From Dictyostelium discoideum (lineage: Eukaryota), in the NCBI GenBank assembly GCA_000004695.1, contig CM000152.2:2656001-2720000 (forward strand): a DNA stretch of 64,000 nt, read 5' to 3'. The notes beneath the pieces are model-generated. The model was not told the origin of the DNA. It searched no databases and saw only the letters and a list, made by a program, of their open reading frames with translations. How positions within the stretch are numbered: position 1 is the stretch's first letter; every line of letters starts with the position of its first letter. The translations under genes and the position numbers were made by a program. This document shows positions 5,511-45,059 of this stretch, piece after piece.

Positions 5511-5755
5511 TAATATTAAAATTTTTTTTTTATGGCAAGTTTCTTTTTTATTATCAGTTTGTTATAAATTCTATTATATTATAATAAAATAGTAAAATTT
5601 CTAACTTTTTTTTTCCAGTGGGTGTATATTGTCTCTTGTGAAAAAAATAAAATAAAATAAAATAAAATAAAATAAAATAAAATAAAATAAAATAAAATAA
5701 AATAAAATAAAAAATGATAAACTGGATTTATTTAATGATGTTTTTATGAATTCAC

Positions 5756-7712: not shown

Positions 7713-7745
<33 letters not shown>

Positions 7746-19507: not shown

Positions 19508-19536
19508 GCGACTTTTGGTCTCCCTGATTAAAAAGC

Positions 19537-19608
19537 TCCCCATTCGGGAATCGAACCCGAGGTACCAGTGTGAAAGACTAGAGTGTTACCGACTACACCA
19601 ATGAGGAT
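19537..19608 (-). tRNA. tRNA-Glu (anticodon UUC)
   Basis: The reverse complement TCCTCATTGGTGTAGTCGGTAACACTCTAGTCTTTCACACTGGTACCTCGGGTTCGATTCCCGAATGGGGAG folds as a cloverleaf: 7-bp acceptor stem with one G-U, anticodon loop CTTTCAC, T-loop GGTTCGATTCC. Confidence 0.85.
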
Positions 19609-19655: not shown

Positions 19656-19719
19656 GGAAAAAAACAAACAACAACAACAATCTCTTTTTTTGATTATTTC
19701 ATTTTTCATATAAAAAAGA

Positions 19720-19754
<35 letters not shown>

Positions 19755-21460
19755 GGAACCAAGTTAATTAGAAAATTTCCAGATTTTTAACTTTTTAAAG
19801 AAAAATAAAAAAGATAGAAAGAAAATAAAATGAAAATCACAAACAACACCACAAATATTAAGCAACACAAATGCCTACAAAAAATAAGCGAAATTGTGGA
19901 TAAAACTCAATTAAAAAAAAAACAATTCAAATACGTCATAAACATCAATCACGAACCAGACGATAAAATAAAAAAAGATTTAGAAAAAAGTTTGGACAAA
20001 AAAGATGTTTTAATCAAAAGTAATAATACATTCAAAATTCTCACAGACAGTATTAGTACAGTAATCTATTTTGTAAATATGTTTGATGCAGAATTAAAAG
20101 GACAATTTATAACCACTATAAGACCAAAAAATATGTATACAGATTTTGATTGGTATAAATCACTCACAGAAATAGAATGGGTAATAGAAAATGAAGGATG
20201 TAAACTAATTAAATCAGAAATTAAAGGCGAAACTCTAATTATCAAAACAGTGAAAAGAGTCGTAGAAGAATTTGACACTATCATTGAACTAGACAATCTA
20301 ACATTAATTGGACACTCCAACAAAGGATGGAGAGATCAAACCTCATTACCAGAAAATCAAGAAGAAAACAAAAATAAAAAACAATCAGATGAACAACAAC
20401 CACAATCTACATCAGAACAAATACCAAAACAAGGAAAAAGAACAATCATTATCCCACCAATCACATCCTCATCTAATGATAAAACATTTATGGCCCTAGA
20501 TGATACAGCTCAAAAGGTAATAGAAGCATCACTAGAAAACGTAGATGAACTAACAAGAATAGAGAATGAGATCAATACACAATCGATAAACAATCAAGAA
20601 ATTAAAACAAAATCAGAAAAACCTATCGAACCACCATCTCCATACAATACACCAATAAAACAACACGGCGAAACAAAGGGACTAACAACGGAAGAAAAAC
20701 TTAGAGAGGCAAATGATATCTTCGACTTCACCAGCCCAAACACTGATGCAATAAGAAAAATAGAATTCCCACTTTCAATCCCTTCAAATCAATGGTTCTT
20801 CTCCTCTCCAATAAAACATATCATGAGTTTCAGCCCAACCTATGGTACACCATCGAAAATTATCGATTCACCAAGTAAATTGTTAAACACACCAAAAAAG
20901 AAACAACAAGACAAAACAAACAAGACCAACAAAACACCAGTCAAACCAAAATTGGGTGAATATGGACAAAAAAGCATAAAAACAAAAATGGATGAAGATA
21001 TAGACAACTTCAACAAGGAAATTCTAAAACAAATCAATAAATCAAAAAACCCCACAAACACACAAGACCAACAACACAACGAACAAAGTAAAGATCAGTT
21101 AGAAGACAAAATAAACCAGAAACTTCAAAAGGTAGATAAAAATCTACCCCAAATAAAACTATAAAGAAAAACACAATAAGAATAGGTGTTTGGAACGTCC
21201 AAGGATCCAACACCATCCAATCTGCCAGCATAATAAACACCGTTTTAGACAACAACAAGCTGGACGCAGCACTTCTAACTGAAACAAATATAAAAACAAA
21301 TAAAATTTACTCAATAAATCAACAATATAAAAACAAAATAACACACCACGCACCAATTGATAAAACAGGACAAGGGGTGTCACAAATCATCATCAACACC
21401 CGCAATAGAACTTCCTAAACATCTCAAAAAATACAATAATTCACTCAGTACTTTCTATAA

Positions 21461-21520
<60 letters not shown>

Positions 21521-21843
21521 CAAGTTAATCAGAAAAATAAAAAAGATAGAAAGAAAATAAAAGGAAAATCACAAACAACACCACAAATATTAAGCAACAC
21601 AAATGCCTACAAAAAATAAGCGAAATTGTGGATAAAACTCAATTAAAAAAAAAACAATTCAAATACGTCATAAACATCAATCACGAACCAGACGATAAAA
21701 TAAAAAAAGATTTAGAAAAAAGTTTGGACAAAAAAGATGTTTTAATCAAAAAGACCCTGTAAAAAAAAAAAAAAAAATAAAATGAGATCTAGCATCTCAA
21801 GGAGAAGCAAATAATAATTGCGTTATCCAATTCAAAAAAAAAA
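19656..21843 (+). mobile_element. TRE5-A-like non-LTR retrotransposon complex: several 5' fragments each ending in poly(A)
   Basis: Flanked by the direct duplication aaatttcacgtttttt (19640..19655 and 21844..21859). The body starts 48 bp upstream of the tRNA-Glu 5' end, with the 5' end facing the tRNA. Segments: 19656..19740; 19741..21517 (5' UTR, ORF1, start of ORF2, then A50); 21518..21775 (a second copy of the 5' UTR plus ORF1 start, then poly(A)); 21776..21843. Confidence 0.65.
19830..21164 (+). CDS. TRE5-like ORF1 protein (444 aa); start of the ORF2 endonuclease follows at 21165..21420
   Basis: A long ORF inside the element. A downstream ORF (IGVWNVQGSNTIQS...ALLTETN) has the hallmark of an APE-type endonuclease N-terminus. 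The first 50 codons recur in the tandem partial copy at 21565..21745. Confidence 0.55.
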   Translation: MKITNNTTNIKQHKCLQKISEIVDKTQLKKKQFKYVININHEPDDKIKKDLEKSLDKKDVLIKSNNTFKILTDSISTVIYFVNMFDAELKGQFITTIRPKNMYTDFDWYKSLTEIEWVIENEGCKLIKSEIKGETLIIKTVKRVVEEFDTIIELDNLTLIGHSNKGWRDQTSLPENQEENKNKKQSDEQQPQSTSEQIPKQGKRTIIIPPITSSSNDKTFMALDDTAQKVIEASLENVDELTRIENEINTQSINNQEIKTKSEKPIEPPSPYNTPIKQHGETKGLTTEEKLREANDIFDFTSPNTDAIRKIEFPLSIPSNQWFFSSPIKHIMSFSPTYGTPSKIIDSPSKLLNTPKKKQQDKTNKTNKTPVKPKLGEYGQKSIKTKMDEDIDNFNKEILKQINKSKNPTNTQDQQHNEQSKDQLEDKINQKLQKVDKNLPQIKL

Positions 21844-26766: not shown

Positions 26767-26866
26767 NNNNNNNNNNNNNNNNNNNNNNNNNNNNNNNNNN
26801 NNNNNNNNNNNNNNNNNNNNNNNNNNNNNNNNNNNNNNNNNNNNNNNNNNNNNNNNNNNNNNNNNN
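26767..26866. other. Assembly gap (100 N)
   Basis: A run of exactly 100 n characters. Its flanks cannot be assumed contiguous. Confidence 0.99.
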
Positions 26867-26997
26867 TAGATAACAAACCAAAACCATCAATTTCACTATT
26901 TGCAAATAAAACAAGGAAAGGAAGAGAGAATAGATCAATATTATATTACCTTTTAATATCAATTAAAAATCAAATATCAAATGATGATTTTTTAATT

Positions 26998-27540
26998 ATG
27001 GAACAATTAGTAACTATATGTTTTAAATTATATAGTGACTCTTTTGATGAAAATGATTTAAATTCACTTCAAGTATTAATTGAATCATTTAATGCAAAAG
27101 TAAATTTAATTACTGAAACAGAAATAATGAATTTCCACTTGTTGTTACATTATCCAATCTATATAAAAAATTGGGGTGCACCAAAATACACTTCAGCTGA
27201 AACTTTTGAAGCACAATTATCAAGAATTAAAAATTATTTAAATAATAATACAAATAATAGGGATGAACAATATGAAAGGGTTACCAAATTAAACATGGTG
27301 AAATTTTTTAATTCAGTAGATAAATTAAAAAGTATTGAGCCTGAAAGTACAGCATTAATTATTGGTAACAAAATAAAAAATCCAGGTAATATAGATAATA
27401 TAAAAATTAAATTAGATTCATTATTTCAAAATTATAAAAATATAACTTTTCACTCATCAATTAAAAATAATAAAGAAATATACAATATTGGTGATGCAGT
27501 TGAAGTTGCATCAGATAATGAACTTTCAGGTATGTTGTAG
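26998..27540 (+). CDS. Hypothetical ORF (180 aa) ending exactly at the terminus of the Tdd-4-like transposon
   Basis: A 180-aa ORF with reasonable composition and no recognised domain. Its final codons ATG TTG TAG overlap the terminal TGTTGTAGGG of the inverted repeat, so the C-terminus is probably created by the insertion. Confidence 0.3.
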   Translation: MEQLVTICFKLYSDSFDENDLNSLQVLIESFNAKVNLITETEIMNFHLLLHYPIYIKNWGAPKYTSAETFEAQLSRIKNYLNNNTNNRDEQYERVTKLNMVKFFNSVDKLKSIEPESTALIIGNKIKNPGNIDNIKIKLDSLFQNYKNITFHSSIKNNKEIYNIGDAVEVASDNELSGML

Positions 27541-27735
27541 GGAATTTTCCATAAAATTTCACTACAGTAGCGTAGTGAATTTTATTATTTAATTTCACTA
27601 CAGTAGCGTAGTGAAAAAAAAAAATCACTGACCTTAAATTTTTTTTTTTTTCAAAAAACAAATAAAGTTTATTAAATTGAAATTTTATTTTTTGTTTTAA
27701 TTATTATTTTATTTATTTTTATTATAATTATTGTT

Positions 27736-27774
<39 letters not shown>

Positions 27775-28549
27775 CAATTTTTTTTTTTAAATTTTTTTCA
27801 TTTTTTATTTGTTTATTAAATTGTATTTTTATTTTTTGTTTTAATTATTATTTTATTTATTATTATTGTTAATTTTTTTTTTTTTTCAATTTTTTTTTTT
27901 TTAATTTATTTTTATTAATTTATTTTTATTAACTCCCTGAGTTGTTCAATTGCTTGATTTACCATATCACTGTAAACACTGCACACAATTGAATTTTTTC
28001 TAGCTTTGTTACCTCTGGTGCATTTGATGTTTTTGCATTTTCCTTTGTATACAAAAAAGTCCAAATATAATTCGTTTTCTATTACAGTTTTTACACAATG
28101 TTGGTGAAATTGTTTTGATTTTAATTCTAATGCTTCTAACATCATATTTGAATTTTTAACGATTAAAGCATCACCACTATTTACATATAGTACTTTGGCT
28201 GCTTTTTCGAGGAATTTAGTCAAATTTTCCTCTGAATCTAACTATTCTTCATTGCCATATTCAATGGCTAAATTTCTTAAGAGTTTTATCGAATCTATTA
28301 ATTCTTCGATCATTCTTTTTTTTTGAAATTTTTTTTTATTTTGTTTTTTCAATTTTTTTTTTTTATTTTGTTTTTTCAATTTTTTTTAAGTTTTATTTTT
28401 TTTTATTTTTTTTTATTTTTTTTAACAAATGTAATTTTTTTTTATTTTTTTCAATTTTTTTTTTTTTTTAATTTTTAATTTTTTTTTTTTTTTTTAATTT
28501 TTTGTGTTGATTTGTGTTTTTTTTGTTTTTTTGATTTGGCCACTTGTTT

Positions 28550-31500
28550 TTATTTTCTAATTTCCCCATACCCCCTTCTATTAATTGCAACCAAATCAAG
28601 TTCTAATTTTTGTGTCCTTGTTAACTTTGTTTTTGCAACTTTTTTTGAAGGTATCACATTAACGATTTTTCCTATTGATGGTGATTTGGAAGGTGATTTA
28701 AATGGTGATTTAAAAGGTGAATTGGAAGGTGATTTAAATGGTGAATTGGAAGGTGAAATGGATGGTGATTTGGAAGGTGATTTAAATGGTGATTTGGAAG
28801 GTGATTTAAATGGTGATTTAAATGGTGAATTGGAAGGTGAAATGGATGGTGATTTGAGAGGTGATTTGGATGGTTTAGAATGTGATTTTAAAGGAGGTTT
28901 ATTAACAATTGGTATCTTATGAGGACGGCCTCTGAGACGTTTAACAGTTGTTACTATACCACTACCAGATTGTGGTATAGTATACGATGGTATTATTTGC
29001 ACTTGAGGTATTGGTGGTACTATTTCTTTTAAATTCATATCCTTTCTCAAACAATTCATTAAATTTGGCGCTGTTGGATTATTATTTAAAAATGGGAGTA
29101 TTTCTTCTTGTTCCATTTCATTATTGAGTTTGTGTTGAAATGGATTATCGTTAATGATAGGTGGAATATTTGATGGATTGTTAAGAGCATCTTCCAAAAC
29201 CCTAAATGGATCATTTTGTGTTACCAATTGATGCAAGTTGAAATTGGATAAATCCTTACCAAGATTTTTAATAAACTGAACCAGAAATTCAATAACTTTC
29301 CCATCATTATTTAAATAAAGACCAGAAGTAAAAGAATCAATATCTTTTTGTATGTTTGGCGATGTTCTAAAAATATCAACTGTTGATTGTTTATAAAGAA
29401 CCAACTTGTTACCTCCTACAAAACCAGAGTATAAACCTTTTTTTTGAAGGCTATTGATTCCATCTTCCAAAAATTCAAGTTTATAAAGTTGTTTAGTGTC
29501 TTCCTGTATTACCTTATGAATTTTACACAAAATCAATATTTTCTATTAGAATTAAATATAAAATTTGTTAATTATTACTGTTTCATATATTATTAATCTT
29601 TATGTTTTAATTACTTACATTATTTTTTTTAATTTCTAGAAAGAGTACAGTATCACCAACTTTCAATCCCTTTGGTGGTTTTGAATTCCATTGATTTTGG
29701 TAACTTGTGAGATTTTCAAGAATAATAGCTGTTCTTTCTTCTTTTGAAACATCTGAAACACCAATTGATTGAGAGTCTTGTTCTGATTGAACATTAATAA
29801 ACAAAGGAACAATACCAACAGCTTGAGATGGTGTCATTTTAATTGTTCTTGTTTTTGTATTATTGTAATCATACAAAGCTTGTTTTAATAGTTCAGAAAG
29901 AGACCTAGAAGTACCATCAAGAAAACTAAAATTTATTTATAAATGATTAATTAATAAACATATCGATAATTTATATTGTTCACAATATCATACTCTTGTT
30001 GTTTTAATTTTGAGATCCTCTCCTTGATAGTTCGATTCAATCTTTCTACCATACCTTGAGTTGTTGGTGTACGAGGAGCTCCATGTGCTGACTTGGAGCC
30101 TGGAAAAAGTTTTAGGAATTCTTTTTGGACTTTGTTTTTAAATTCACGTCCATTATCGCAGTGCCATACTTTCACAGGTTTGCCAAAGTACGTGAGAGCC
30201 AAAAAATTGTATATGGGAACTGTTCTCTTTGTTGTCAAACATCTAAAAAATAAATGATAATTAAAATAAAAAAAGAAAACTAATAAATTAATAAATAAAA
30301 AATAAATACCTTCCAGTAGCAAATTTTGTAAAAGAATCTATGCATAGAATAATGTAAACAACATCGGTGTCGTACGGTTGTACAGAGTCATATTGGATAA
30401 GATCATCTAGTTTAGTTAGTATCTTTTCATTATCATCATCGTATGTAACTTTTTCTTTATGTTCACCTTTAATTGATGTTAAATCATAAACCAATCTTGA
30501 GTATTCCTCGGTATCTACAATTGGAGCAAAATCCTTTGTTATACCTATTAATTTATTTAAATTATTAAAAGAGTTTTAATATAAAAGTTACAAAACATCA
30601 TATAAAAATGATTGATACCAAACCTTTTATTCTATTTCGTTGGCAAATGTCACACGTATCTACTGCATCAGATACAAAAGAATACAATCCCATATTATAA
30701 TATTTAGTCTTGTAGTTCCCATAGGTTGCATCTCTTCCTACACAGCGAAGAAAAAACCACCTTTAAATTCGCTTTAAATTAAATTTAAATTTGCTTTAAA
30801 GTCCTGAATTAAAGCAATTTTAAAGGTAATTTTAAAGGTAATTTTTAAGGTTACTTTAAAATCACCTTAAAAATTACCTTTAAAATTCCTTTAAAAATTA
30901 CTTTTTTAATCGCTTTAAAAGCGAGGTCCTGAGTTCGAAGCCGTTATTTAACGGATAAATTTTTTAAAATTTTTTTTTTAATTTTTCAAAAAATTACCAA
31001 AAGGGATTCGATCCCCCGACCCTCTATCAAAGGGTAGTCTCATCAACCATTACACCATTTGATTGCTTTGATGAAAATTTAAAAATGATAGAATATTTTA
31101 TCCCCATTTTTTTGTTCTAAAATTAGATCTTTTTTATTAAAAACCTTAAATTTATGTTTAAAGGAAATTTAAATTCACTTTAAATCTACTTTAAATCTAC
31201 TTTAAATTCTATTTAAAATTAATTTAAAATAAATTTTAAAGGTATTTTTAAATATCTTAAAAATTATCTTAAAAATTACCTTAAAAATCACCTTTAAAAT
31301 CACCTTTAAAATCACCTTTAAAATTGCTTAAAAATTTATTTTAAAGCAAATTTTAAAGGCATTTTTAAATATCTTTAAAATTACCTTAAAAATTACCTTA
31401 AAAATGAATTTTTTAAACGCGGCTTTAAATTCAATTTAAATCCAATTTAAATCAACTTTTCTTTAAATTTGCTTTAAAGGTGCATTTTTCTTTGCTGTGT

Positions 31501-31808
31501 ATATGACCTTTATGCATTTCTTCCCAGAGTGATACCATTCTATAATCATTAATTACTTCTAAACACACTTCTTTTGATATATTTCTATCTCCGCCACAAT
31601 TCATGACTTTTTTTTCAATTCTAAATAATTTTTCTTTTCTGTTTCTGTTTTTTATTGGTCAGAATTTAAAAAATGATTGTGTTATTGTAAGGAAAAATAT
31701 TTACTCATCATGTAAAAATTTATAATTTTTATGTTTAGTATTTTCAAAATTATTATCTTCAATAAATTTTAAATAATTTATAATTTCATTTATTTTATCT
31801 TGTTTCAT
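28550..31808 (-). CDS. Integrase-like DDE transposase of the Tdd-4-like element (multi-exon, about 700 aa; one exon disrupted by a nested insertion)
   Basis: ATG at 31808 (MKQDKINEII...). An HHCC zinc-finger-like region lies at about 30560..30700 (CDICQRNRIK), downstream of the insertion. The catalytic core lies at about 29950..30480 (DTDVVYIILCIDSFTKFATGR; WHCDNGREF; GAPRTPTTQGMVERLNRTIKE). The C-terminal SPxK/KSP repeat region is ORF 28550..29536. Exons are separated by short AT-rich GT..AG introns. The exon at about 31503..31640 is interrupted by the 30741..31499 insertion. Confidence 0.55.
30741..31499 (+). mobile_element. Unclassified ~760-bp TIR element (TTTAAAGG-type tandem arrays plus tRNA-derived core), copy 1, nested in the transposase exon
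   Basis: Terminal inverted repeats CACAGCGAAGAAAAAACCACCTTTAAA ... TTTAAAGGTGCATTTTTCTTTGCTGTG. Each half carries arrays of 8-10-bp units (ttaaaggta, ttaaaatcacc, tttaaatct and similar). The centre has a tRNA-like segment with a B-box-like GGGATCGAATCCC and an ACCCT-TTGATAG-AGGGT anticodon-like hairpin, but it does not fold as a complete tRNA. Confidence 0.6.
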
Positions 31809-31823
31809 TTTGGGAAAATGAAA

Positions 31824-31858
<35 letters not shown>

Positions 31859-32134
31859 TGTTGGGGAAAAAAAAAAAAAGTTTTGGCGCAAAAAAAAAAA
31901 AAAAAATAAAATAAAAAAAAAAAAAAATAAAATAAAAAAAAAAAAAAATAAAAAAACTTATATAGAACTAATAATCAAATAAAAGATAATAATTTAATAA
32001 ACTTTATTTGTTTTTTGAAAAAAAAAAAATTTAGGGTCAGTGATTTTTTTTTTTCACTACGCTACTGTAGTGAAATTAAATAATAAAATTCACTACGCTA
32101 CTGTAGTGAAATTTTATTGAAAATTCCCTACAAC

Positions 32135-35100
32135 ACCGACTCTCAAATGTTTAATCGTCCCAAACAGAGAAAACATGGATAAACCCAAGATTATAATTAA
32201 CTCTCATTCCAAAGAAAAACAATTCAAATTAATTCTCGATACTGGAAGTAATGTTAGTTTAATCAATAAGAGGTTGATTTCAAAAGATATGAAGAACCAC
32301 GTTCACAAAACCAAAGCCAAGATTAACTTCCCGCTACTAGACGTCAAAGAAGAGTTTGTTGAACAAATCAATATGCAAGTTAACAATGAAATTCATAACT
32401 TCTTTATTATAGAATTGGATATCATTGATGTACTTTTCGGTAATGATATCCTTAAGGACTCTATCATTAACCAAAAAGATAAAATAATCAAGTTGAATAA
32501 TAGTACATACAAAATTAATTATCAACAGTCGAATCAATTACATTGTAATGTAAAAGCTCCAAGAAAACATGTTACCGTATCCAATGATAATCAGTCACAT
32601 AATCTACTGGATGATGATGAAGATATCAAAGAACAAGTTACAAAGTTTGTTGAAAGCATTCCTTCACAACTTTGTGATATACTGGTTAAAACTAATCCAG
32701 AAGAAGAAGAGATACAAGCAGTACGAGATTTCATTAATGACTCATTCGAAGATGTTATAGTAGATAAACTTCCTGATATTCCAGATCAGATTAACAATTC
32801 CAGAAGAGGTAATATCATACATAATATCATAATCAAGAAAGGTCAAGATGTTGAACCAACAAAGAAACAAATCTATTACTCAACAGATGATCATAAGAGA
32901 CATGTCGAAGAGATGGTTCTCAAATTTATAGACTTAGGTATTATCAAAAGATCAGAATCAAATTACTCATCTCCAATCATGTTATTAAAGAAGAGAGATT
33001 CATGGCGTGTAGTCCACGACTATCGTCAACTAAATAAAGTCACTGTTAGAGACGATCATCCATTCACTCCGGTTGATAGTCTTTTAAATCAATGTAAAGA
33101 TTCAAAGCTTTTCTCAAAGTTTGACATGATTATGGGTTATTTCCAAGTGTTAATTAATCCAGAACACGCAAAGTACACCGCTTTCATTACACATATTGGT
33201 AAATTTGAATATACTAGAATGCCACAAGGTTTAGTCAACTCTCCATCCACATTCGCCAGATTGATGGTCGAAATATTTGGAAAAATCAAAAGTTTATTAC
33301 AATACTTTGATGATCTTTTGGTTCATTCAAAACTCGACTACATGGTACATTTCATTGAAATCATTAGAATGCTTCTATATTGTAGAAAGTACCTATTATT
33401 CATTTCAAGAGAAAAGAGTGAAATGTTAAAGACTGAAGTTGATTTCCTTGGTTTTCACATTCATAAAGATGGTATATCTCCAAGAGCTGCAAAGGTTAGA
33501 GCTATCTCTGAGTTACCTGAACCAAGAAACGCCAAAGAAGCTGAAGCTGCATTAGGTCTTTTTGGATTCTTCAGGAGACACATTGAAAATTACGCTGAAA
33601 AAACCTATCACCTTTCCAAAGAATCAAAAGGGAAAAACAAGAAAACTCTTTCTGATGAATCACTCAAAGAATTCAATAATCTAAAGAAAGAGTTTGAAGG
33701 TGAAAATATTGTCGCTATTCCAATTGAACAAGATAACTCCATATCAATAGATATCGAAAAGGTTAAAGCATCAACAGACATGCCAATCCATTCAGATAAT
33801 AATAATATAAACAATGGTAGTTTTCACTTGTATTGTGATGTTAGTGATAAAGCATTATCAGGTGTGTTATATCAAATCCAAGGTGATAAATTCAAAGTCA
33901 TTTGGTTCCACAGTAGAAAACTTACTGATACTCAAAAGAGGTACAGCATAGGTGATAGAGAGTTCCTTTCAATCATTGATTCTCTAAAGAAGTTTCAACA
34001 TTTATTAATTGGTAAAAAGGTTTCAATCTACACTGATCACCAAAATCTTACATATATTATCAATAAGTCAAACGATAAACCGTTCACAAAGAGACAAGAT
34101 AATTATATGAAATATATTAAAGAATTTGATTATGAATTAAGACATATAAGTGGTAAAAAGAATGGTATAGCTGATTTCTTGTCTCGTAAATATGATAATT
34201 TCCAATGGGATGAATCGTTTTTAAATAAAATTAAGGAAGAACAAATCAATTCTCAATGGCTATTAGAGATGAAAAAGAATCCAAATTTATGCATTGAAGA
34301 AATTAATGATATCTGCTACCTTAGTGAAGATGGGTTCAAGAAATTAATCATCATAGATAAAGAAACTATTCATACCGTCATTAGAGAATATCACGATACC
34401 AAATATAGTGGTCATCACGCTTTAGATATCACATACAATAATATAAGACAAGATTACTATTTCAAAGAAATGTTTTCTATTATCAAGAGGTACATAAAGT
34501 CTTGTGCAACATGTCAATTGAACATTAACCGTAAAGATAATGGTATACTCCAAAGTTTAGAAATTCCCTTTGAAGTTTGGAGAGATATATCAATCGATTT
34601 CTTATCGCTACCAAAAACAATGTATGCAATAAACGGATTTACAGTTGAAGTCGATCAAGTTTGTGTCATTGTTTGTAGATTATCTAAAATGGTTCATATA
34701 GTTCCATGTCATAAGACAATAGATGCCCAACATACTGCTCAATTATTGTTGAATCATGTGTTCAGACTCCATGGTTATCCAAGAACAATCGTCTCCGATA
34801 GAGATCCAAGGTTCCTTTCAGAAATATGGGAGAGATGGGCAAAGACGATGGATTCTAAACTCAAGATGACTGTGGCACACAGAGCACAAGCTGATGGTCA
34901 AACTGAAAGAATGAATAGAGAAATTATTAGAATATTAACTAAAGCCTCTACAGAGTATGGGGAGAATTGGTCAGATATCATTCCACTTATTGAATTTGCA
35001 ATGAACTCATCAATGAGCAAGTCTACAAAGATGTCACCATTCCAAATCGTTTATGGATTCAATCCACCAACTCCCGTTAATCACTTCAATTCATTAACAA

Positions 35101-36430
35101 AGACTCGTATACCAATGAGCAACATCAAAAAGATTGTCCGTGATAATATACTAGATGCTCAAATCAATGCTCAAAAGTACTACAACCGAGGTCGTGGTGA
35201 TGTTATCTTCGTAGTCGGAGAAAAGGTTATGGTTAAAAGAAAATTCTTCCAAACTAACCTTTCAAAAGATCTAATCTCTCATAAACTTGAATCCAAGAAT
35301 TGTGGACCATTCATAATCACTGCCGTTCATGGTAATAATGTAACACTCGATTTAGTAGGTTATCCAAAGAAACACAATGTGTTCAACAAGGATCAAATCG
35401 TAAAACTATATGAGGACAGTGAGTGGTTAAGAGAAGAGATATCGATGCCCGAACCTGAGGAGATGGACGAAGCAAGTTACGAAGTTGAAAGTATTCTCAA
35501 TCACGATAAAGTCAAAAAGATGTACCTAGTGAAGTTCAAAGGTTACCCAGAACCTGAATGGATCAAAGAAGTCGATACAGACTGTGAAGAGTTAGTCAGA
35601 GAGTATTGGAATAACGTGCAGAAGAAACAATTGAACTCAAGAAGAGAAAGAGAGAATGTAACTACAGAAGCCGTTGAGCCAATTGTGTCACCTCCGCTCT
35701 CCCAAGAAGTTCAAAGTTCTCAAACATTGCAACCAATTACTCCAAGACAACAAAACTCCATCTCAAATCAAAGAAACCAATCAAAGAAAAGAAAATCAAG
35801 AAATCAAAATACTCAAAGTGATGATGATGAACTTGATCTTAGTTTACAAATTAAAACAACTAGATCAGGAAGAAAAGTTACACCCAAGAGTTTATAGTCC
35901 ACCTCTGAGCCATAGCTAGCCTAAAGAAGGAAGGGGAAGGTGTTAGAGACTCAAAACTAAATTAATTTAAAGTTAGTATGAGCTCAACAACGTAACAAAT
36001 TCGCGCATCTCCATATAAAAATATTTCATTTAATTTTTATTTTTATTTTTTAATTTTTTATTTTTTCAGTCAAAAAATAAAAAATTAAATTAAAAAAAAT
36101 TAAATTAAATTAAAATTTAAAAAAATAATAAAAATTCTGATTTTCGGTTTAGTTGGCATAACGCCCTTACTTTTAATTATCTCTTTTATGTATGTTTACT
36201 TTTATGATATTAGTCTTTCACTCTTTCTATCCTTCATATTAAAATACATTACTTTAAAGATTGGACTGTTTGATTTAAGATTGAATAAATGTGACAATGG
36301 ATTGAAGATTAGTGTGAGTGACTTTTACACTATCGGAGATGAATCATTTAATAATTTGTCAATAGGTAATGTATTAGGAAATGCAAATGCTCCAAACCCA
36401 ATGGAAAACCAGAGAATAATAATTAGAAGA
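32135..36430 (+). mobile_element. Skipper-like (chromovirus, Ty3/gypsy) LTR retrotransposon, 5'-truncated by the Tdd-4-like insertion, with a partial 3' LTR
   Basis: The pol ORF starts mid-protease right after the transposon terminus. A polypurine tract AAGAAGGAAGGGGAAGG at about 35915..35932 is followed by a TG-initiated LTR-like sequence from about 35935. That sequence is cut off at 36430 by another element. Confidence 0.55.
32175..35897 (+). CDS. Pol polyprotein (protease, RT, RNase H, integrase, chromodomain), 1240 aa
   Basis: Protease LILDTGSN. RT YXDD motif QYFDDLLVHS. Integrase HHCC (HHALDITYNN...CATCQLN) with a DDE core. C-terminal chromodomain YEVESILNHDKVKKMYLVKFKGYPEPEWIKEVD. Confidence 0.8.
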   Translation: MDKPKIIINSHSKEKQFKLILDTGSNVSLINKRLISKDMKNHVHKTKAKINFPLLDVKEEFVEQINMQVNNEIHNFFIIELDIIDVLFGNDILKDSIINQKDKIIKLNNSTYKINYQQSNQLHCNVKAPRKHVTVSNDNQSHNLLDDDEDIKEQVTKFVESIPSQLCDILVKTNPEEEEIQAVRDFINDSFEDVIVDKLPDIPDQINNSRRGNIIHNIIIKKGQDVEPTKKQIYYSTDDHKRHVEEMVLKFIDLGIIKRSESNYSSPIMLLKKRDSWRVVHDYRQLNKVTVRDDHPFTPVDSLLNQCKDSKLFSKFDMIMGYFQVLINPEHAKYTAFITHIGKFEYTRMPQGLVNSPSTFARLMVEIFGKIKSLLQYFDDLLVHSKLDYMVHFIEIIRMLLYCRKYLLFISREKSEMLKTEVDFLGFHIHKDGISPRAAKVRAISELPEPRNAKEAEAALGLFGFFRRHIENYAEKTYHLSKESKGKNKKTLSDESLKEFNNLKKEFEGENIVAIPIEQDNSISIDIEKVKASTDMPIHSDNNNINNGSFHLYCDVSDKALSGVLYQIQGDKFKVIWFHSRKLTDTQKRYSIGDREFLSIIDSLKKFQHLLIGKKVSIYTDHQNLTYIINKSNDKPFTKRQDNYMKYIKEFDYELRHISGKKNGIADFLSRKYDNFQWDESFLNKIKEEQINSQWLLEMKKNPNLCIEEINDICYLSEDGFKKLIIIDKETIHTVIREYHDTKYSGHHALDITYNNIRQDYYFKEMFSIIKRYIKSCATCQLNINRKDNGILQSLEIPFEVWRDISIDFLSLPKTMYAINGFTVEVDQVCVIVCRLSKMVHIVPCHKTIDAQHTAQLLLNHVFRLHGYPRTIVSDRDPRFLSEIWERWAKTMDSKLKMTVAHRAQADGQTERMNREIIRILTKASTEYGENWSDIIPLIEFAMNSSMSKSTKMSPFQIVYGFNPPTPVNHFNSLTKTRIPMSNIKKIVRDNILDAQINAQKYYNRGRGDVIFVVGEKVMVKRKFFQTNLSKDLISHKLESKNCGPFIITAVHGNNVTLDLVGYPKKHNVFNKDQIVKLYEDSEWLREEISMPEPEEMDEASYEVESILNHDKVKKMYLVKFKGYPEPEWIKEVDTDCEELVREYWNNVQKKQLNSRRERENVTTEAVEPIVSPPLSQEVQSSQTLQPITPRQQNSISNQRNQSKKRKSRNQNTQSDDDELDLSLQIKTTRSGRKVTPKSL

Positions 36431-36913
36431 CACAGCAAAGAAAAATGCACCTTTAAAGCAAATTTAAAGAAAAGTTGATTTAAATTGGATTTAAATTGAA
36501 TTTAAAGCCGCGTTTAAAAAATTCATTTTTAAGGTAATTTTTAAGGTAATTTTTAAGATATTTAAAAATGCCTTTAAAATTTGCTTTAAAATAAATTTTT
36601 AAGCAATTTTAAAGGTGATTTTAAAGGTGATTTTAAAGGTGATTTTTAAGGTAATTTTTAAGATAATTTTTAAGATATTTAAAAATACCTTTAAAATTTA
36701 TTTTAAATTAATTTTAAATAGGATTTAAAGTAGATTTAAAGTAGATTTAAAGTGAATTTAAATTTCCTTTAAACATAAATTTAAGGTTTTTAATATCTTT
36801 TGATCAATTCATATGATTAAAATAACCCTTCAGCTTAAATGATAAGCCTTTAAATAAATATTAAATAAAACTCGTATTAACACAGATGGACATATATCAA
36901 TCTTGTTAATCCA

Positions 36914-36965
<52 letters not shown>

Positions 36966-37140
36966 AAGCGATTAAAAAGGTAATTTTAAAGGTAATTTTA
37001 AAGGTAATTTTTAAGGTGATTTTAAAGTAACCTTAAAAATTACCTTTAAAATTACCTTTAAAATTGCTTTAATTCGGGACTTTAAAGCAAATTTAAATTT
37101 AATTTAAAGCGAATTTAAAGGTGGTTTTTTCTTCGCTGTG
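36431..37140 (-). mobile_element. Unclassified TIR/TTTAAAGG element, copy 2 (inverted); its central tRNA-like core is replaced by a TRE 3'-end fragment
   Basis: 36431..36795 is the reverse complement of the right half. 36796..36963 is a non-LTR 3' end (tcttttgatcaattcatatgattaaaataaccc...) plus A45, identical to the tail at 43138..43292. 36964..37140 is the reverse complement of the left-half terminus. Confidence 0.55.
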
Positions 37141-37289
37141 GAGTTCCAAGGCCAACTGTTCCACCAATCCAAGAAACAGTGCAAATAACCACAAACCCAC
37201 GTGTAACATACATATTGGAATACGAAAGTCTTCAAAAAGTTTGTCAAAGTAAATACTATTCAGATGGCGATGTATGTTACCAGATTAAT

Positions 37290-37335
<46 letters not shown>

Positions 37336-37608
37336 TTAAATAAATAGGTTTCAAATTTCTTTATTACTGGAATAATTAAACAAGCTGGTGGTAGTAACGA
37401 AGATTGTACCAGTCAAAATATTTTTGCAAGGTTAACGAAATGGGTAAGTAATAAGGAAAGTAACCCAAGAACAAAAGTAGCTGGCAGTTTAGCCATTTAT
37501 TCAAAAGGTGAGAAAAACCACAATTTTAAAGTTTATATTTTCGATAGCCAAGTATTTTTTGGTAATGAAATTGTGTGTATAAATTAATATAATCAAAATT
37601 TACAAATA

Positions 37609-37651
<43 letters not shown>

Positions 37652-37922
37652 AAATATAGTTTTCCCCTGCTTTACTTTCTCTTTTTCTCAACCACATTAA
37701 TTATGAAAATTATCAAAATGATATTTTCATAAAAGAGTTTGTTGACTCTTGTAAAACAGGTGAAGAGAAACACTGGTACCCAGATTCAGTTCCTTTAATA
37801 AAGAGATTAATTTCAATATTAAATGATTTTAGTAGTAAATTTGACTCTAAGGCTAAAATGAGAAAAGATGCACAAGAAGCTTTTCAATTTCCTAATTCTG
37901 CACTTTACTTAAATTCTTCCCA
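37141..37922 (+). CDS. Remnant 3' exons of a host gene (hypothetical), 5' part displaced by transposon insertions
   Basis: Coding-like frames with GTAAGT donors and AG acceptors: about 37141..37293 (VPRPTVPPIQETVQITTNPRVTYILEYESLQKVCQSKYYSDGDVCYQ), about 37335..37448, and 37667..37922 (...DIFIKEFVDSCKTGEEKHWYPDSVPLIKRLISILNDFSSKFDSKAKMRKDAQEAFQFPNSALYLNSSQ, then stop). No domain recognised. Confidence 0.3.
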
Positions 37923-37989
37923 ATAAAAGTTTTAAAATAATTTTTAAAATTTAAAAATAAATTTTATTATTAAAAAATAATATATCTGT

Positions 37990-38447
37990 GTATTTTATTT
38001 TTCACTTAAAATTTTATTTCATACTATAGTTTTAAAATAATTTTTAAATTTTTTTTATTTATTTTTGTAGCATTATTAATAAGGTGCTTTTAAATGTAAT
38101 TATTAATAAACTTTAAAATTCAATTTTTAAGGAGCTTTAAAATGTAATTATTAATATAATTTTTAATCATATTTTTAAGTAATTTTAAAGAGCATTATAA
38201 AGATAATTTTAAAGGGCATTTTAAACTTAATTTTAAAGAGCATTATAAAGGTAATTTTAAAGGTCATTTTAAAGGTAATTTTCAAGGTCATTTTAAAGGT
38301 GATTTTAAAGGTGATTTTAAAGGTGATTTTAAAGGTCATTTAAAAAATTGCTTTTAAATTAATTTTTAAGTGACTTTTTTATAGGACTTTAAATCCACTT
38401 TTAATTTAATTTAAAGTTGCTTTAAAGGTGTAATTTTCATCGCTGTG
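37990..38447 (+). repeat. Unclassified TIR/TTTAAAGG element, diverged half-copy (right half ending ...CATCGCTGTG)
   Basis: Arrays of ttaaaggtgatt/ttaaaggtcatt units ending in the characteristic terminus ggtgtaattttcatcgctgtg. It abuts the 5' truncation point of the non-LTR element. Confidence 0.5.
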
Positions 38448-39027
38448 AATCGAAGCCATCAGAATTTCAAATAACCTAATGGATATGGACCAACTAAATA
38501 AAAGACCCACCTTCTCAAGAACGATACACAACACAAACAATAACCTCACAAGAATCTTGGAAAGGAGACTAGACAGAATATACCTTAACAATAGCTTAAT
38601 CAACTACAGCCAATTATACTTAAGGAACCTAATCCCCCCAAAAATTAACGACATACCTCTATCAGATCACAACTTCCTATCAACCACTTTCACTCTACCC
38701 AACATACAGATGAACAAGCGCAGATGGAGATTAAAAAAATCCTCAATCCTCTCAAGCATAATGCTTAAGAAAATAGACTTCCTACTTAACGATTATTCAA
38801 GGGAGCTGTCATCCAACCATAACTCTATTTCCTTCTCTCAACTCAACAGCTTACTGAACAAAATAAAACAACTATACACCGAATTTCAAAAACAAAACGA
38901 CTACAACAATAAGGCAAACATCAAAAATCTAATCTCCCTACTAGAGACATAATTTAAAGACCAAGCCTTCGCAACCCTTTCAGCAATAAATGAATCTAAA
39001 AAAAGAGAAGAACAACTTAAACAAGAA

Positions 39028-40215
39028 TTGAACAACTATTGCGAAGAAACCTCACTCAAGTACATCTCCGCGAGAATCAAGAAAAGACACAATGATTTCA
39101 CCATCAACGCAGTAAAAGATGTACAAGGTAGAACAAATAACAAACAGGAATTGATCGAAGAAGAATACGTAAAATATTACTCAAATCTTTATGACTACAA
39201 AGAAGATGACCCACTATCTCATTACGAAATGTTGGAAAATTGGACAGTGACCAGGGACTCAACATGGGACAACCTTGAAAATGAATTCACCTCACAAGAA
39301 ATCCTAGAAGTAATAAAACAACTGAACCCACACAAATCTCCAGGTCCAGATGGAATTCCAAACTTATTCTACATAACACACAAAGAAAAACTAGCTCCAA
39401 TACTGGCCTCAGCATTCAACGACACTCTAAGAAATCCTCATCTAAATAGCAAAAATTACAAAGAAGGCCTCATTATCACGATACCTAAAAAGGGAGACCC
39501 CGAACTAATCAAAAACAGAAGACCAATTACACTGGCTAACTGTATATATAAAATCCACTCAAAGCTAATAAACAATAGAATAATCCCAATACTAACGAAA
39601 GTGATCAACCACTATCAAAAAGGTTTCGTACCAGGCAGATTCATTATAGATAATATCATATCAATGAACGAATTAATCAACTATTGTAATGATAAAAGAA
39701 TTAACGGAATAATTACACTATATGATTTCGAAAAAGCTTTTGACTCGATCTCACACGGTTCAATACTTAGATCACTACAACACATCAACATTCCAACCAA
39801 TATAATCAACCTGATAATGAATCTACTCACCAAATCTGAAGCAAGAATTGAAATTAATGGTAGAACTACTATACCCTTTGAGATCAAAAGAGGAGTTAAA
39901 CAAGGAGATCCACTATCACCCACACTGTTCGTCCTTGTAATAGAGGCTTTAGCTAGAAAAATTTTACAAGATGATCGAATTACTGGCCTTCCTCTAAACA
40001 ACAGCAACCACAGAGAGAAATTCCAAAGCTTTGCAGACGACTCGGCTTCAATGGTCCCAGACTCTCAACAACTTGAATTAGTACTACAACACTTCAATTC
40101 ATTTTGCAAAGCCACTTCCTCAAAACTAAACATCGACAAATCTTCATCAATTCTTATAGGCAACCCAGACAATACCAACACAGCGAAGAAAAAACCACCT
40201 TTAAATTCGCTTTAA
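39028..40215 (+). CDS. Reverse transcriptase segment of the non-LTR ORF2 (395 aa), C-terminally cut by the nested insertion at 40179
   Basis: LINE-type RT motifs. The reading frame runs into the inserted element (...NTNTAKKKPPLNSL then stop) and resumes in ORF 41720..43162 after the insertion. Confidence 0.7.
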   Translation: MNNYCEETSLKYISARIKKRHNDFTINAVKDVQGRTNNKQELIEEEYVKYYSNLYDYKEDDPLSHYEMLENWTVTRDSTWDNLENEFTSQEILEVIKQLNPHKSPGPDGIPNLFYITHKEKLAPILASAFNDTLRNPHLNSKNYKEGLIITIPKKGDPELIKNRRPITLANCIYKIHSKLINNRIIPILTKVINHYQKGFVPGRFIIDNIISMNELINYCNDKRINGIITLYDFEKAFDSISHGSILRSLQHINIPTNIINLIMNLLTKSEARIEINGRTTIPFEIKRGVKQGDPLSPTLFVLVIEALARKILQDDRITGLPLNNSNHREKFQSFADDSASMVPDSQQLELVLQHFNSFCKATSSKLNIDKSSSILIGNPDNTNTAKKKPPLNSL

Positions 40216-41722
40216 ATTAAATTTAAATTTGCTTTAAAGTCCTGAATTAAAGCAATTTTAAAGGTAATTTTAAAGGTAATTTTTAAGGTTACTTTAAAAC
40301 CACCTTAAAAATTACCTTTAAAATTACCTTTAATTACCTTTTTAATGGCTTTAAAAGCGAGGTCCTGAGTTCGAAGCCGTTATTTAACGGATAAATTTTT
40401 TAAAATTTTTTTTTTTAATTTTTCAAAAATTACCAAAAGGGATTCGATCCCCCGACCCTCTATCAAAGGGTAGTCTCATCAACCATTACACCATTTGATT
40501 GCTTTGATGAAAAATTTAAAAATGATAGAATATTTTATCCCCATTTTTTTGTTCTAAAATTACACAGCGAAGAAAAAACCACCTTTAAATTCGCTTTAAA
40601 TTAAATTTAAATTTGCTTTAAAGTCCTGAATTAAAAAAATTTTAAAGGTAATTTTAAAGGTAATTTTTAAGGTTACTTTAAAACCACCTTAAAAATTACC
40701 TTTAAAATTACCTTTAAAATTACCTTTTTAATGGCTTTAAAAGCGAGGTCCTGAGTTCGAAGCCGTTATTTAACGGATAAATTTTTTAAAATTTTTTTTT
40801 TTAATTTTTCAAAAATTACCAAAAGGGATTCGATCCCCCGACCCTCTATCAAAGGGTAGTCTCATCAACCATTAAACCATTTGATTGCTTTGATGAAAAA
40901 TTTAAAAATGATAGAATATTTTATCCCCATTTTTTTGTTCTAAAATTAGATCTTTTTTATTAAAAACCTTAAATTTATGTTTAAAGGAAATTTAAATTCA
41001 CTTTAAATATACTTTAAATCTACTTTAAATCCTATTTAAAATTAATTTAAAATAAATTTTAAAGGTATTTTTAAATATCTTAAAAATTATCTTAAAAATT
41101 ACCTTAAAAATCACCTTTAAAATCACCTTTAAAATCACCTTTAAAATTGCTTAAAAATTTATTTTAAAGCAAATTTTAAAGGCATTTTTAAATATCTTAA
41201 AAATTACCTTAAAAATTACCTTAAAAATGAATTTTTTAAACGCGGCTTTAAATTCAATTTAAATCCAATTTAAATCAACTTTTCTTTAAATTTGCTTTAA
41301 AGGTGCATTTTTCTTTGCTGTGTAGATCTTTTTTATTAAAAACCTTAAATTTATGTTTAAAGGAAATTTAAATTCACTTTAAATCTACTTTAAATCTACT
41401 TTAAATCCTATTTAAAATTAATTTAAAATAAATTTTAAAGGTATTTTTAAATATCTTAAAAATTATCTTAAAAATTACCTTAAAAATCACCTTTAAAATC
41501 ACCTTTAAAATCACCTTTAAAATCACCTTTAAAATCACCTTTAAAATTGCTTAAAAATTTATTTTAAAGCAAATTTTAAAGGCATTTTTAAATATCTTAA
41601 AAATTACCTTAAAAATTACCTTAAAAATGAATTTTTTAAACGCGGCTTTAAATTCAATTTAAATCCAATTTAAATCAACTTTTCTTTAAATTTGCTTTAA
41701 AGGTGCATTTTTCTTTGCTGTG
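40179..41722 (+). mobile_element. Unclassified TIR/TTTAAAGG element, copy 3: rearranged left-left-right-right double copy inside the non-LTR ORF2
   Basis: Two tandem left halves (40179..40563 and 40564..40947), each with the tRNA-like core, followed by two tandem right halves (40948..41329 and 41330..41722). The host sequence ACCAA is duplicated at both flanks, a possible 5-bp target-site duplication. Confidence 0.55.
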
Positions 41723-43259
41723 AACCAAAGAATTCCAATATCTACAAATCCAGAAAGATACTTGGGATACTTCTTCACAGGTAAAGGGATAACAAGAAAA
41801 ATGCCAGAAATATTAAACACAATAAGATCATCCTTAGTACTATGGAAAACCACTGACTCAACAATCAAAACCAAAACCAACATCCTCAAAGCATTCGCAC
41901 TCTCTAAATTAACCTACTATTCATATGTAGAGAACTTTAAGGAAGAGGAATTAAACCAAATCAATAAATTAGTCGAATGGTTTTTATCGGCACCAAACAA
42001 CAAAAATGCTAGTGGATTTCAAGTTATTAATTTAATGAGAACCAAAAGAGCAAGATACCCACTAAAAGTAGGGGGCTGGAACATTTGGAATATAGAATTG
42101 AGACAACTGGCGCAGAAACTTTGGATCATAAACCAGTTCATCCTAGCACTAGAAACCAAACAAACAAACTCATCTCATCACAAAAGCTGGGAATATCAGA
42201 TCCAAAAAAACAAATTCACATCCAGATACCTAAAAGAAAACTTAGACGAATGGAACAAAATAAGAATAAAAAAAGCAATCTTCAACAATAATCTCACATC
42301 CATAAAAAACGAAAATGGACAACCACTTTCACTGGCAGAATGGTATACCACAATTCAAGACCAAAATCCAACCATCCCTAAAACGGAATTCCAATCATCT
42401 CTAAACTTAAGAGGCTACAGCTATAATCAACTCTTCAACAACATACTGAAGATAAAAGACCCTAAAACAAGAGACACAATGTTTAGATTCCATGCCAGAT
42501 GCCTTCCAATAAACTACCTTCACAACAAACAATGCCCACTCTGCAAAGAAGATATGAGCAAAGACCCATACGGTCACCTGTTCTTCTCATGCAAGAAAAC
42601 AAAACAATTCATAAAAATAAATAAACTCAAAAATTTCATCTATATTACCACAGGCAAAGGTAAAAACTGGCACCATACAAGAATTAGGCAAAATAACAAT
42701 TTCATTAATAGAATAACTCCAAAATTATCACCGACAGCCAAAAAAGATCAAGAAGTGAATGCAGATTACGCCAACCACAGATTCCACAAAGAATACTTTG
42801 AATGGAACTATAAAGCAATAGACTATGATCTAACCAGATCATTCGCATATAGAAACCTAATGGCCCTTATCCTCCACAACATTTGGATTTGGATTTGCAA
42901 TCAAATATACAGTGAAGATCCTTTAACAGATGAATCACTATCATACAGCTCCCTTCTAAAGAAATGGCACAAATTGGCCACTCTAGAATACATCAAAAAA
43001 GCAAAAGATCTGAAAAACTTATCAGCAAAAGACCATAATAACTTCAAAGATCCTAAGATCCTTCTCACTTCAACGATCAAGCTAAGAAAAACAACAGCTA
43101 ATTACTATTGTATTCCAGAATCATCTCTCCCAAATATTATATCTTTTGATCAATTCATATGATTAAAATAACCCTTCAGCTTAAATGATAAGCCTTTAAA
43201 TAAATATTAAATAAAACTCGTATTAACACAGATGGACATATATCAATCTTGTTAATCCA

Positions 43260-43292
<33 letters not shown>

Positions 43293-44488: not shown

Positions 44489-44499
44489 GGAATTGAACC
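44489..44499 (-). promoter_or_regulatory. External B-box (exB) downstream of tRNA-Ile
   Basis: GGTTCAATTCC on the minus strand, 26-36 bp past the tRNA 3' end. Confidence 0.45.
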
Positions 44500-44524
44500 A
44501 ACGATCGTATAAAGAATTCTTAAA

Positions 44525-44597
44525 AAAAAGAACTTGCTCGATGCAGGGATCGAACCTGCGACCGTGGCGTTATTAGCACCACGCTCTGCCGACTGAG
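44525..44597 (-). tRNA. tRNA-Ile (anticodon AAU)
   Basis: The reverse complement GCTCGATTAGCTCAGTCGGCAGAGCGTGGTGCTAATAACGCCACGGTCGCAGGTTCGATCCCTGCATCGAGCA has a perfect 7-bp acceptor stem, D-loop AGCTCAGTCGG, anticodon loop CTAATAA and T-loop GGTTCGATCC. Confidence 0.85.
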
Positions 44598-44611
44598 CTA
44601 ATCGAGCTTTT

Positions 44612-44989: not shown

Positions 44990-45059
<70 letters not shown>

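Follow-up and report, generated by a model that had tools for sequence, protein, structure and literature searches.

A Tdd-4 transposon with mismatched flanks in a nested mobile-element cluster of Dictyostelium discoideum

The DNA considered here, called the window, is a 64,000-nt stretch of contig CM000152.2 of the Dictyostelium discoideum assembly GCA_000004695.1, and coordinates without a locus label are positions in it. At 27533-32135 it holds a complete copy of the DNA transposon Tdd-4 (4,603 bp by alignment of its terminal repeats), whose transposase gene lies on the minus strand. This copy is split by a nested 759-bp element, and the sequences on its two sides share no target-site duplication. 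An earlier reading made from the sequence alone, referred to here as the original prediction, had placed the element at 27533-32134; its start stands, while its end moves by one nucleotide to 32135. Protein matches, too, point to D. discoideum as the source of the window. Comparisons were made with GCA_054883475.1, an independent, chromosome-scale assembly of a near-identical D. discoideum genome, whose loci are labelled L001, L002 and so on. The right flank is the original flank of this Tdd-4 copy. The left flank has about an even chance of having been attached to it by the assembler, through a contig end borrowed from another Tdd-4 copy (an assembly chimera).

The element is bounded by inverted repeats of 146 and 145 nt that differ by 2 substitutions and one 1-nt indel (98% identity in the alignment), in keeping with the two near-perfect inverted ends of about 150 bp proposed from the sequence. 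The left repeat (27533-27678, plus strand) lies at the 3′ end of the gene and starts TGTTGTAGGG, and the right repeat (31991-32135, minus strand) lies at its 5′ end and ends CCCTACAACA. Beyond these lengths a weaker, A/T-rich likeness extends to about 242 nt. The termini read TGTTG...CAACA, i.e. 5′-TG...CA-3′, fitting TGTNR. Each repeat contains two copies of the 18-mer CACTACAGTAGCGTAGTG, placed directly at 27560-27577 and 27596-27613 (plus strand) in the left repeat and at 32055-32072 and 32091-32108 (minus strand) in the right one. The 18-mer or its complement occurs four times in 64 kb, every time inside these terminal repeats. Two palindromes per end had been described, and this count stands; the palindrome itself is interrupted rather than perfect, with arms of 6 bp (CACTAC/GTAGTG), or 8-9 bp counting the TTTC/GAAA flanks, around a non-palindromic spacer of 6 nt. 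Single-stranded folding of the repeats exceeds that of shuffled sequences (z = -4 to -6; -6.2 for the left palindrome pair). The palindromes may act as transposase binding sites. By analogy with its family, the Tdd-4 enzyme would bind the terminal inverted repeats, of which the terminal 16 nt are common to a sister family and the palindromes are family-specific, and would then, as a cut-and-paste transposase, cleave at the CA-3′ ends and insert through a 5-bp staggered cut.

Subtraction of the 759-bp insert and one copy of its TA duplication leaves 4,603 - 759 - 2 = 3,842 bp. TDD-4 is listed at 3,839 bp in Table 2 of Bao, Kapitonov and Jurka (2010; PMC2836005), so the size match put forward in the original prediction, at about 3.84 kb, is borne out; sister copies without an interruption measure 3,815-3,831 bp. 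Residues 66-321 of the transposase are identical at 255/256 positions to TDD4 (XP_629668) in the supplementary alignment of the same paper, in which the TDD5 row differs widely. TDD-4 is described there as having 5-bp duplications, TGTNR termini and an H2C2 plus DDE enzyme without GPY/F and YPYY, and TDD-5 as its sole sister family (PMC2836005). A string search of the 707-aa protein of the window for GP[YF] and [YF]P[YF][YF] likewise found no GPY/F or YPYY motif. Comparison with the reference thus confirms the earlier identification: the element is Tdd-4, a known D. discoideum DNA transposon of the Ginger2/Tdd group.

The transposase gene has 6 exons in 7 coding blocks, exon 2 being the split one, and 5 GT-AG introns of 67-84 nt. 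Short introns had been foreseen correctly, and the exon count, given as at least 5, is now 6. In the splice model exon 1 (31705-31808; all blocks are on the minus strand) has its ATG at 31808. The 5′ part of exon 2 (31500-31620, where 31500-31501 is one TA copy) ends ...HKGHI and encodes His71 and His74, and the 3′ part (30624-30738; GRDATY...CDICQRNRIK) encodes Cys104 and Cys107. The candidate for the first catalytic Asp (D134 or D166) is encoded by exon 3 (30310-30544), and D221 in CDNGREF and E258 in GMVERLN come from exon 4 (29994-30242); exon 5 (29619-29925) and exon 6 (28550-29542) follow, the latter being the last block of the frame. Excision of the insert together with one TA restores an uninterrupted frame of 707 aa, equal to the 715-aa product that GCA_054883475.1 has at four annotated loci elsewhere, barring 8 residues that stem from the choice of intron-1 acceptor. 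Exon 6 encodes 16 tandem SPXX units at about 28673-28864, with a DNA periodicity of 12 nt. The C-terminal repeats noticed before are therefore real, and the motif proposed for them, KSPxKSP, is an approximation of these units. The Tdd-4 described by Wells in 1999 reportedly has 15 SPXX units, against 16 in the window copy, and is reported to have six introns, of which the sixth is AT-AA and is alternatively spliced around the SPXX repeats. From sequence alone, this sixth AT-AA intron was not located in the window gene. Exact-protein look-ups of P0003 and of a 180-aa open reading frame (ORF) that spans the junction returned no record.

The encoded protein is integrase-like and resembles retroviral integrases, as was anticipated. 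Its zinc finger consists of H71, H74, C104 and C107, and D221 and E258 are spaced by 36 residues. Pfam reports Integrase_H2C2 at 32.2 bits (cut-off 25.5) and, below threshold, rve at 26.7 bits (cut-off 32.6) and rve_3 at 22.7 bits. The best matches among solved structures are the integrase cores of Rous sarcoma virus (RSV), prototype foamy virus (PFV) and HIV-1 (E ~4e-6), and CDNGREF and GMVERLN line up with the second Asp and the Glu of the retroviral catalytic triad. Owing to an insertion of about 40 aa, the first Asp can be placed in two ways: it is D134 in the alignment of Bao and colleagues and falls near D166 in the alignment to PFV. An integrase-like enzyme in an element that adjoins a Ty3/gypsy retrotransposon might suggest a rearranged fragment of a long terminal repeat (LTR) retrotransposon rather than a DNA transposon. 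This idea deserves practically no credence, since the terminal repeats are inverted, not direct, and enclose no reverse transcriptase (RT), RNase H or gag; it is refuted by the many copies of the 3.8-kb unit with 5-bp duplications and by the match to the TDD4 reference. Downstream of the transposase gene, the ORF2 region (27915-28310, minus strand; start MIEELIDS...) has an in-frame TAG in all sampled copies. Gene callers annotate ORF2 as a separate gene of 110-114 aa, and it has no Pfam hit.

The exon-2 insertion is a non-autonomous inverted-repeat element of 759 bp (30741-31499) with termini CACAGC...GCTGTG, flanked by a TA duplication at 30739-30740 and 31500-31501; it entered the zinc finger between His74 and Ile75. 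At L001 a Tdd-4 copy is uninterrupted at the same point, reading ...CTTCCTATATGACC... with a single TA. This empty site proves that the insertion is nested, and the earlier view of an exon split by a foreign element is upheld. As the insertion disrupts the zinc finger encoded by exon 2, this copy is unable to make its own transposase; with both terminal repeats intact, it could still be mobilised in trans by intact copies. The coding sequence is identical to that of four intact copies and the positions of 759-bp elements vary between Tdd-4 copies, so both Tdd-4 and the 759-bp family look recently active.

All 12 complete copies of the 759-bp family taken from the window and the fetched loci have 2-bp duplications (TA and AA four times each, GA twice, AC and CT once each). 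The last 138 bp of the 759-bp element are 98% identical to the terminus of a larger, ORF-bearing element (L009 10117-10254) that belongs to the multi-copy transposon ORF family found at the left end of Tdd-4, here called the D family. Because this terminus is common to both, the 759-bp element is a non-autonomous derivative of the D family. The name thug-S was rejected for it, as thug-S is described in the literature as intron-bearing.

Members of the 759-bp family are abundant. Besides the copy in Tdd-4, the window has them at 36431-37140 and at 40179-41722, the latter with a nested copy inside (40563-41322). In L001 they lie at 5108-5867, 7299-8056, 9108-9867 and 10978-11736; a single Tdd-4 copy has been struck three times there, and self-nesting occurs in the family. 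The copy at L001 7299-8056, between TTCTAA and TTCATAA, is an insertion with a small target deletion: it stands in place of 30 bp of Tdd-4, which comprise the intron-5 acceptor and the beginning of the final exon. Within the nested element of the window, a tRNA-like stretch on the minus strand (30996-31065) has an A-box-like TGGTGTAATGG and a B-box-like GGATCGAATCC about 40 nt apart, and 56 nt of it are similar to the tRNA-Glu of the window. Another B-box-like motif, GAGTTCGAAGCC, is found at about 30925-30945. ARAGORN called no tRNA in the nested element, and Rfam gave no tRNA call for 30996-31065. Such a stretch could matter in a genome whose retrotransposons target tRNA genes. Inverted 12-nt sub-repeats at 30808-30895 form a long AT-rich hairpin that matches an Rfam miRNA precursor well below threshold (42.7 bits; gathering score 94), and miRNA-like matches of this sort are most likely a chance consequence of the AT-rich hairpin.

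The left flank of Tdd-4 (26867-27532, plus strand) is a fragment of the D family. Its ORF is cut after ...NELSG, exactly at the Tdd-4 terminus, where intact members continue ...ELSGRWSGIINS (...NELSG / RWSGIINS...). This ORF has 13 homologues, and the fragment is 99.4% identical to the copies in L010 and L004 and 97.9% identical to that in L009. No Pfam match is obtained for the family even at E <= 1; it may bear some likeness to CACTA/KDZ-type transposases. The ORF had been set aside as unrelated, which does not hold: it belongs to the family that hosts the whole stack of insertions and that is ancestral to the 759-bp element.

On the other side, the sequence at 32136-36329 (plus strand) is the 3′ part of a Ty3/gypsy LTR retrotransposon, with a reading frame open from the junction onward. 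A DTGS protease motif near its start is followed by RT, RNase H, integrase and a chromodomain; Pfam finds RVT_1, RT_RNaseH and Integrase_H2C2 and, below threshold, rve and Chromo. The 389-bp 3′ LTR (35941-36329) has a polypurine tract just before it. The element inserted into a member of the D family: its duplication CTATC lies at 36330-34, and the D-family element resumes at 36330-36430 and 37141-37546. The earlier account of this flank as the middle of a Skipper-like protease fits the DTGS motif. The retrotransposon is consistent with Skipper, a Ty3/gypsy element of D. discoideum, and is tentatively given that name.

At the ends of Tdd-4 the two flanks, AGGTA / TG... and ...CA / CCGAC, have no common duplication in any register, in agreement with the mismatch noted originally. 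Comparison with sister copies, the check proposed for it, shows what a regular insertion looks like: four other Tdd-4 copies in GCA_054883475.1 have perfect 5-bp duplications (TCATC, CATAT, ATGAC and AACAA), which makes 5 bp the family norm and the window copy the exception. A single insertion in place, either made without a duplication or with one since lost through point mutations, might draw some support from the imperfect duplication of the L008 copy (AAAAT/AAATA). It is nevertheless very improbable, given that AGGTA and CCGAC agree at no position and that the flanks come from different elements, and it is refuted by the existence elsewhere, in L010, of an exact CCGAC partner together with the other half of the retrotransposon.

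The independent assembly contains the same Tdd-4 copy with the same nested insert at L003 5383-9961. Over 9.26 kb (27533-36795) the window matches L003 at 99.67%, with 8 substitutions and 10 homopolymer-length differences, nested insert and right junction included, and a further 8.1 kb (36964-45107) matches likewise; the 1,240-aa polyprotein of the right flank is unchanged. Since this match covers the whole element, an independent assembly confirms the linkage of its two terminal repeats, a point on which the original prediction had left room for doubt. The match begins exactly at 27533, and the sequence to its left differs from that of the window. In L003 this left flank is a truncated 5′ part of a B-box/FNIP host gene that ends ...GAATTTAAAAATAAT, its last bases being ATAAT. 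The L003 copy is therefore also without a matching duplication (ATAAT / Tdd-4 / CCGAC).

The missing partner is found at L010, where a Tdd-4 copy (4410-8230) is flanked by GTCGG, the complement of CCGAC, on one side and by ATTAT, the complement of ATAAT, on the other. The arrangement there is thus the 5′ half of a retrotransposon, ...CCGAC / Tdd-4 / ATAAT..., followed by the FNIP part of the host gene. When the L010 flank ...CATTCCGAC is joined to the right flank of the window, CCGACTCTC..., the resulting 295 bp contain CCGAC once and are 100% identical to an intact retrotransposon copy. The 5′ half in L010 carries an identical LTR (391/391 positions of the BLAST alignment; the LTR proper is 389 bp), and both halves have the CTATC duplication of the D-family element in common. 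Because the CCGAC partner adjoins the 5′ half of the same retrotransposon, the window copy was first inserted in this Skipper-type element; the 5-bp duplication is complete once the L010 flank is used and is absent around the window copy as it stands. The left flank of L003 and the other flank of L010, when joined, align contiguously to paralogous B-box genes at 89-91%. Both empty sites, CCGAC and ATAAT, can accordingly be rebuilt, which makes the L003 and L010 copies reciprocal recombinants of one Tdd-4 insertion in the retrotransposon and another in a B-box gene. Neither locus has any Ns. L003, like L002, is on the 6.43-Mb chromosome record CM142509.1 and L010 is on the 2.2-Mb contig JBTAPE010000034.1, and the exchange suggests a large Tdd-4-mediated rearrangement between the two.

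An ATAAT beside a Tdd-like end at window position 9003 was considered as the partner of the L003 left flank and rejected, since it belongs to an unrelated 102-bp miniature element and the real partner is in L010. This miniature element (8902-9003) has Tdd-type termini (TGTTGTAG...CCCTACAACA) and an ATAAT duplication and lies in a paralogue of the B-box/FNIP gene. At about 3650-3812 the window also contains a degenerate solo right-end Tdd-4 terminal repeat with decayed palindromes, abutting a B-box gene fragment. In GCA_054883475.1, the Tdd-4 copy at L005 4686-8500, read together with L011, is flanked by internal exon-2 Tdd-4 sequence next to a copy without one end; this arrangement is Tdd-4 inserted into Tdd-4.

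The left junction of the window, at 27532/27533 (GATAATGAACTTTCAGGTA / TGTTGTAGGGAATTTTCCATA), lies in an undependable part of the scaffold. A run of 100 N (26767-26866) lies 666 bp from the left end of Tdd-4. The host genes before it (1-26766) comprise a B-box/FNIP array, a WD40 gene, a gene for cobalamin adenosyltransferase and the first part of a long gene. After it, a mobile-element cluster built around a tRNA-Ile gene extends from 26867 to about 47000, with host genes again beyond. Left of the gap, the contig breaks off within a host gene of 1,709 aa, in a degraded simple repeat of the CAACCA type, and the rest of this gene is absent from the window. Compared with GCA_054883475.1 (L002, L003) this whole contig is inverted relative to the cluster, either because the scaffold has it the wrong way round or because the inversion is real.

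Divergence between the two genomes sets the left end apart as well. Background substitutions amount to 0.04-0.09% over 29 kb of shared sequence. In the left flank there are 4 substitutions in 666 bp, in the first 620 bp of the element (27533-28151) there are 3, and in the next 2.7 kb none, so that the leftmost 1.3 kb diverges about 10-fold more than the remainder; 3/7 of its differences carry states seen in paralogous copies. The raised divergence and the paralogue states indicate that this 1.3 kb has a different source copy. As a test of chimerism, single diagnostic sites are equivocal and only the regional divergence rate is informative.

An assembly chimera is favoured on the grounds that L003 has a different left flank, that divergence is raised on the left, that a gap is nearby, that the adjoining contig is inverted and ends mid-gene, and that there is a second probable repeat collapse in the window. 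The latter concerns the 759-bp family: the window has one 710-bp copy at 36431-37140, where L003 14257-15776 has an outer copy and a nested copy, about 810 bp more, and the difference is a probable repeat collapse, or else a polymorphism. Several findings weigh against an assembler's join. Among 12 Tdd-4 ends of the same type sampled in GCA_054883475.1, none carries the junction between the D-family ORF and Tdd-4; the junction is exact to the terminal nucleotide, hence it must exist in real DNA somewhere. The left fragment agrees in family and orientation with the D copy that hosts this stack and is 99.4% identical to it, which would also fit a simple 3,230-bp deletion. Further, the substitutions at 27801 and 27826 occur in no sampled copy and are possibly read errors, and a rare variant at 27886-27890 is common to the orthologous copy, being present in L010 and L013 as well.

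The same divergence fits a donor copy reached by real DNA exchange. The join would then have arisen by ectopic homologous recombination, in the strain of the window, with another Tdd-4 copy lying in a D-family element, and exchange of this very type is documented for this very element by the gap-free reciprocal products L003 and L010. This origin is unlikely, however, as the two genomes, which have the whole cluster in common, differ otherwise by only about 0.06%, and a second independent exchange at the same element would be required in so close a lineage. It also leaves unexplained why both assemblies place the host-gene block 20-30 kb or less from the cluster, and of the two assemblies the reference, with its gap and inverted contig, is the weaker witness.

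A deletion would instead keep the left fragment as the true upstream part of the D element. Relative to L010 the window is without 3,230 bp, namely 479 bp of the D element and the 2,751-bp 5′ half of the retrotransposon, and this loss ends exactly at the Tdd-4 terminus. Terminus-anchored deletions have analogues in the adjacent deletions of bacterial insertion sequences (IS) and in the alternative transposition of Ac/Ds, and an aberrant transposase-mediated event of this kind predicts a break at the last base of the terminal repeat, as is seen. The fragment is of the right family and orientation and 99.4% identical to the D copy upstream of the retrotransposon 5′ half in L010, and in the window the D element continues beyond the right end of the retrotransposon. 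Against this, 4 substitutions in 666 bp are about 10 times the background (Poisson probability ~0.001), with 2/4 in the paralogue state, and if the strain of the window were unrecombined, the neighbouring host-gene contig should not adjoin. A deletion is therefore also doubtful. Taken together with the exchange between L003 and L010, a history without any assembly error, in which that exchange is a large Tdd-4-mediated chromosomal rearrangement and the left junction of the window a further Tdd-4-associated event (recombination or terminus-anchored deletion), is a tentative possibility. The alternatives offered in the original prediction, ends of two copies brought together by recombination or an assembly error masked by the gap, were essentially right: the CCGAC partner lies on the L010 copy, the left flank is uncorroborated by L003, and the scaffold at the gap is inconsistent.

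The stack was built as follows. A D-family element was present first, and a Skipper-type retrotransposon inserted in it, duplicating CTATC. Tdd-4 then entered the protease region of the retrotransposon, duplicating CCGAC, and a 759-bp derivative of the D family later landed in exon 2 of Tdd-4, duplicating TA. Under an assembly chimera the leftmost 1.3 kb, comprising the 666-bp flank and 620 bp or more at the left end of the element, would come from another Tdd-4 copy residing in a paralogous D-family element, most likely joined by the assembler at a contig end beside the unreliable gap. The predicted partner of the left junction reads ...AAAATTCCCTACAACA / AGGTAGATGGTCAGGTATTATC, i.e. ...CCCTACAACA / AGGTAGATGGTCAGG.

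Away from Tdd-4, the window has a 2.18-kb insertion (19660-21839) that starts 52 bp upstream of a tRNA-Glu gene (19535-19607, minus strand) and carries a 444-aa ORF without a Pfam hit. The insertion is absent from GCA_054883475.1, where about 24 bp common to both flanks are found, and it has the look of a polymorphic, tRNA-targeted retroelement insertion that distinguishes two near-identical genomes.

For users of this region, to whom the results are mainly of value, the scaffold at about 26.7-28.2 kb should not be trusted: the left flank is uncorroborated and the adjoining contig is inverted and ends mid-gene. The weight for biology at large is small, as Tdd-4 has been known since 1999 and nested, rearranged copies are expected in the transposon clusters of the D. 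discoideum genome. The locus does provide a worked example of four-deep nesting in which every target-site duplication was recovered, and of two Tdd-4 copies with swapped flanks.

Among known systems, the closest is Tdd-4 itself, with which the window copy shares the host, the length (3,842 against 3,839 bp), the TGTNR termini, the 5-bp duplication seen in sister copies and an H2C2 plus DDE enzyme without GPY/F or YPYY; it differs in its 759-bp exon-2 insert and its want of a matching duplication. Tdd-5 (AF298206) belongs to the same superfamily and host, and its alignment row is unlike the window protein at many positions. A sister family found in L004 and L006 encodes a protein (P0004) with 43% identity, has the first 16-20 nt of the terminus in common (TGTTGTAGGGAATTTT) and also possesses subterminal interrupted palindromes, whose sequences differ from those of Tdd-4; it is presumably Tdd-5. 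Retroviral and Ty3/gypsy integrases resemble the enzyme in their DNG and MVER motifs, the upstream H2C2 finger and TG...CA termini, whereas the Tdd-4 enzyme comes from a terminal-inverted-repeat element that has introns and lacks reverse transcriptase.

Chimeric transposons without matching duplications arise by ectopic recombination, and alternative transposition, as in Ac/Ds, P elements and the adjacent deletions of IS elements, rearranges flanks. The present copy resembles such chimeras in lying as one element between the halves of two target sites, with a reciprocal partner in GCA_054883475.1; it differs in that, for the left junction of the window, an assembly chimera is at least as likely as a biological origin. 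The nested and left-flank families bear only a resemblance to transposons of the CACTA/Mirage/Chapaev type. They may correspond to the DDT-S (759-bp element) and DDT-A (left-flank ORF family) of Glockner et al. 2001. What they share with the DDT elements of D. discoideum is a non-autonomous/autonomous pair with a common terminus, CAC... ends and 2-bp duplications. According to the literature (PMC5633606), the DDT transposases of D. discoideum fall into no known family; having no Pfam match, the left-flank ORF family resembles them on that point.

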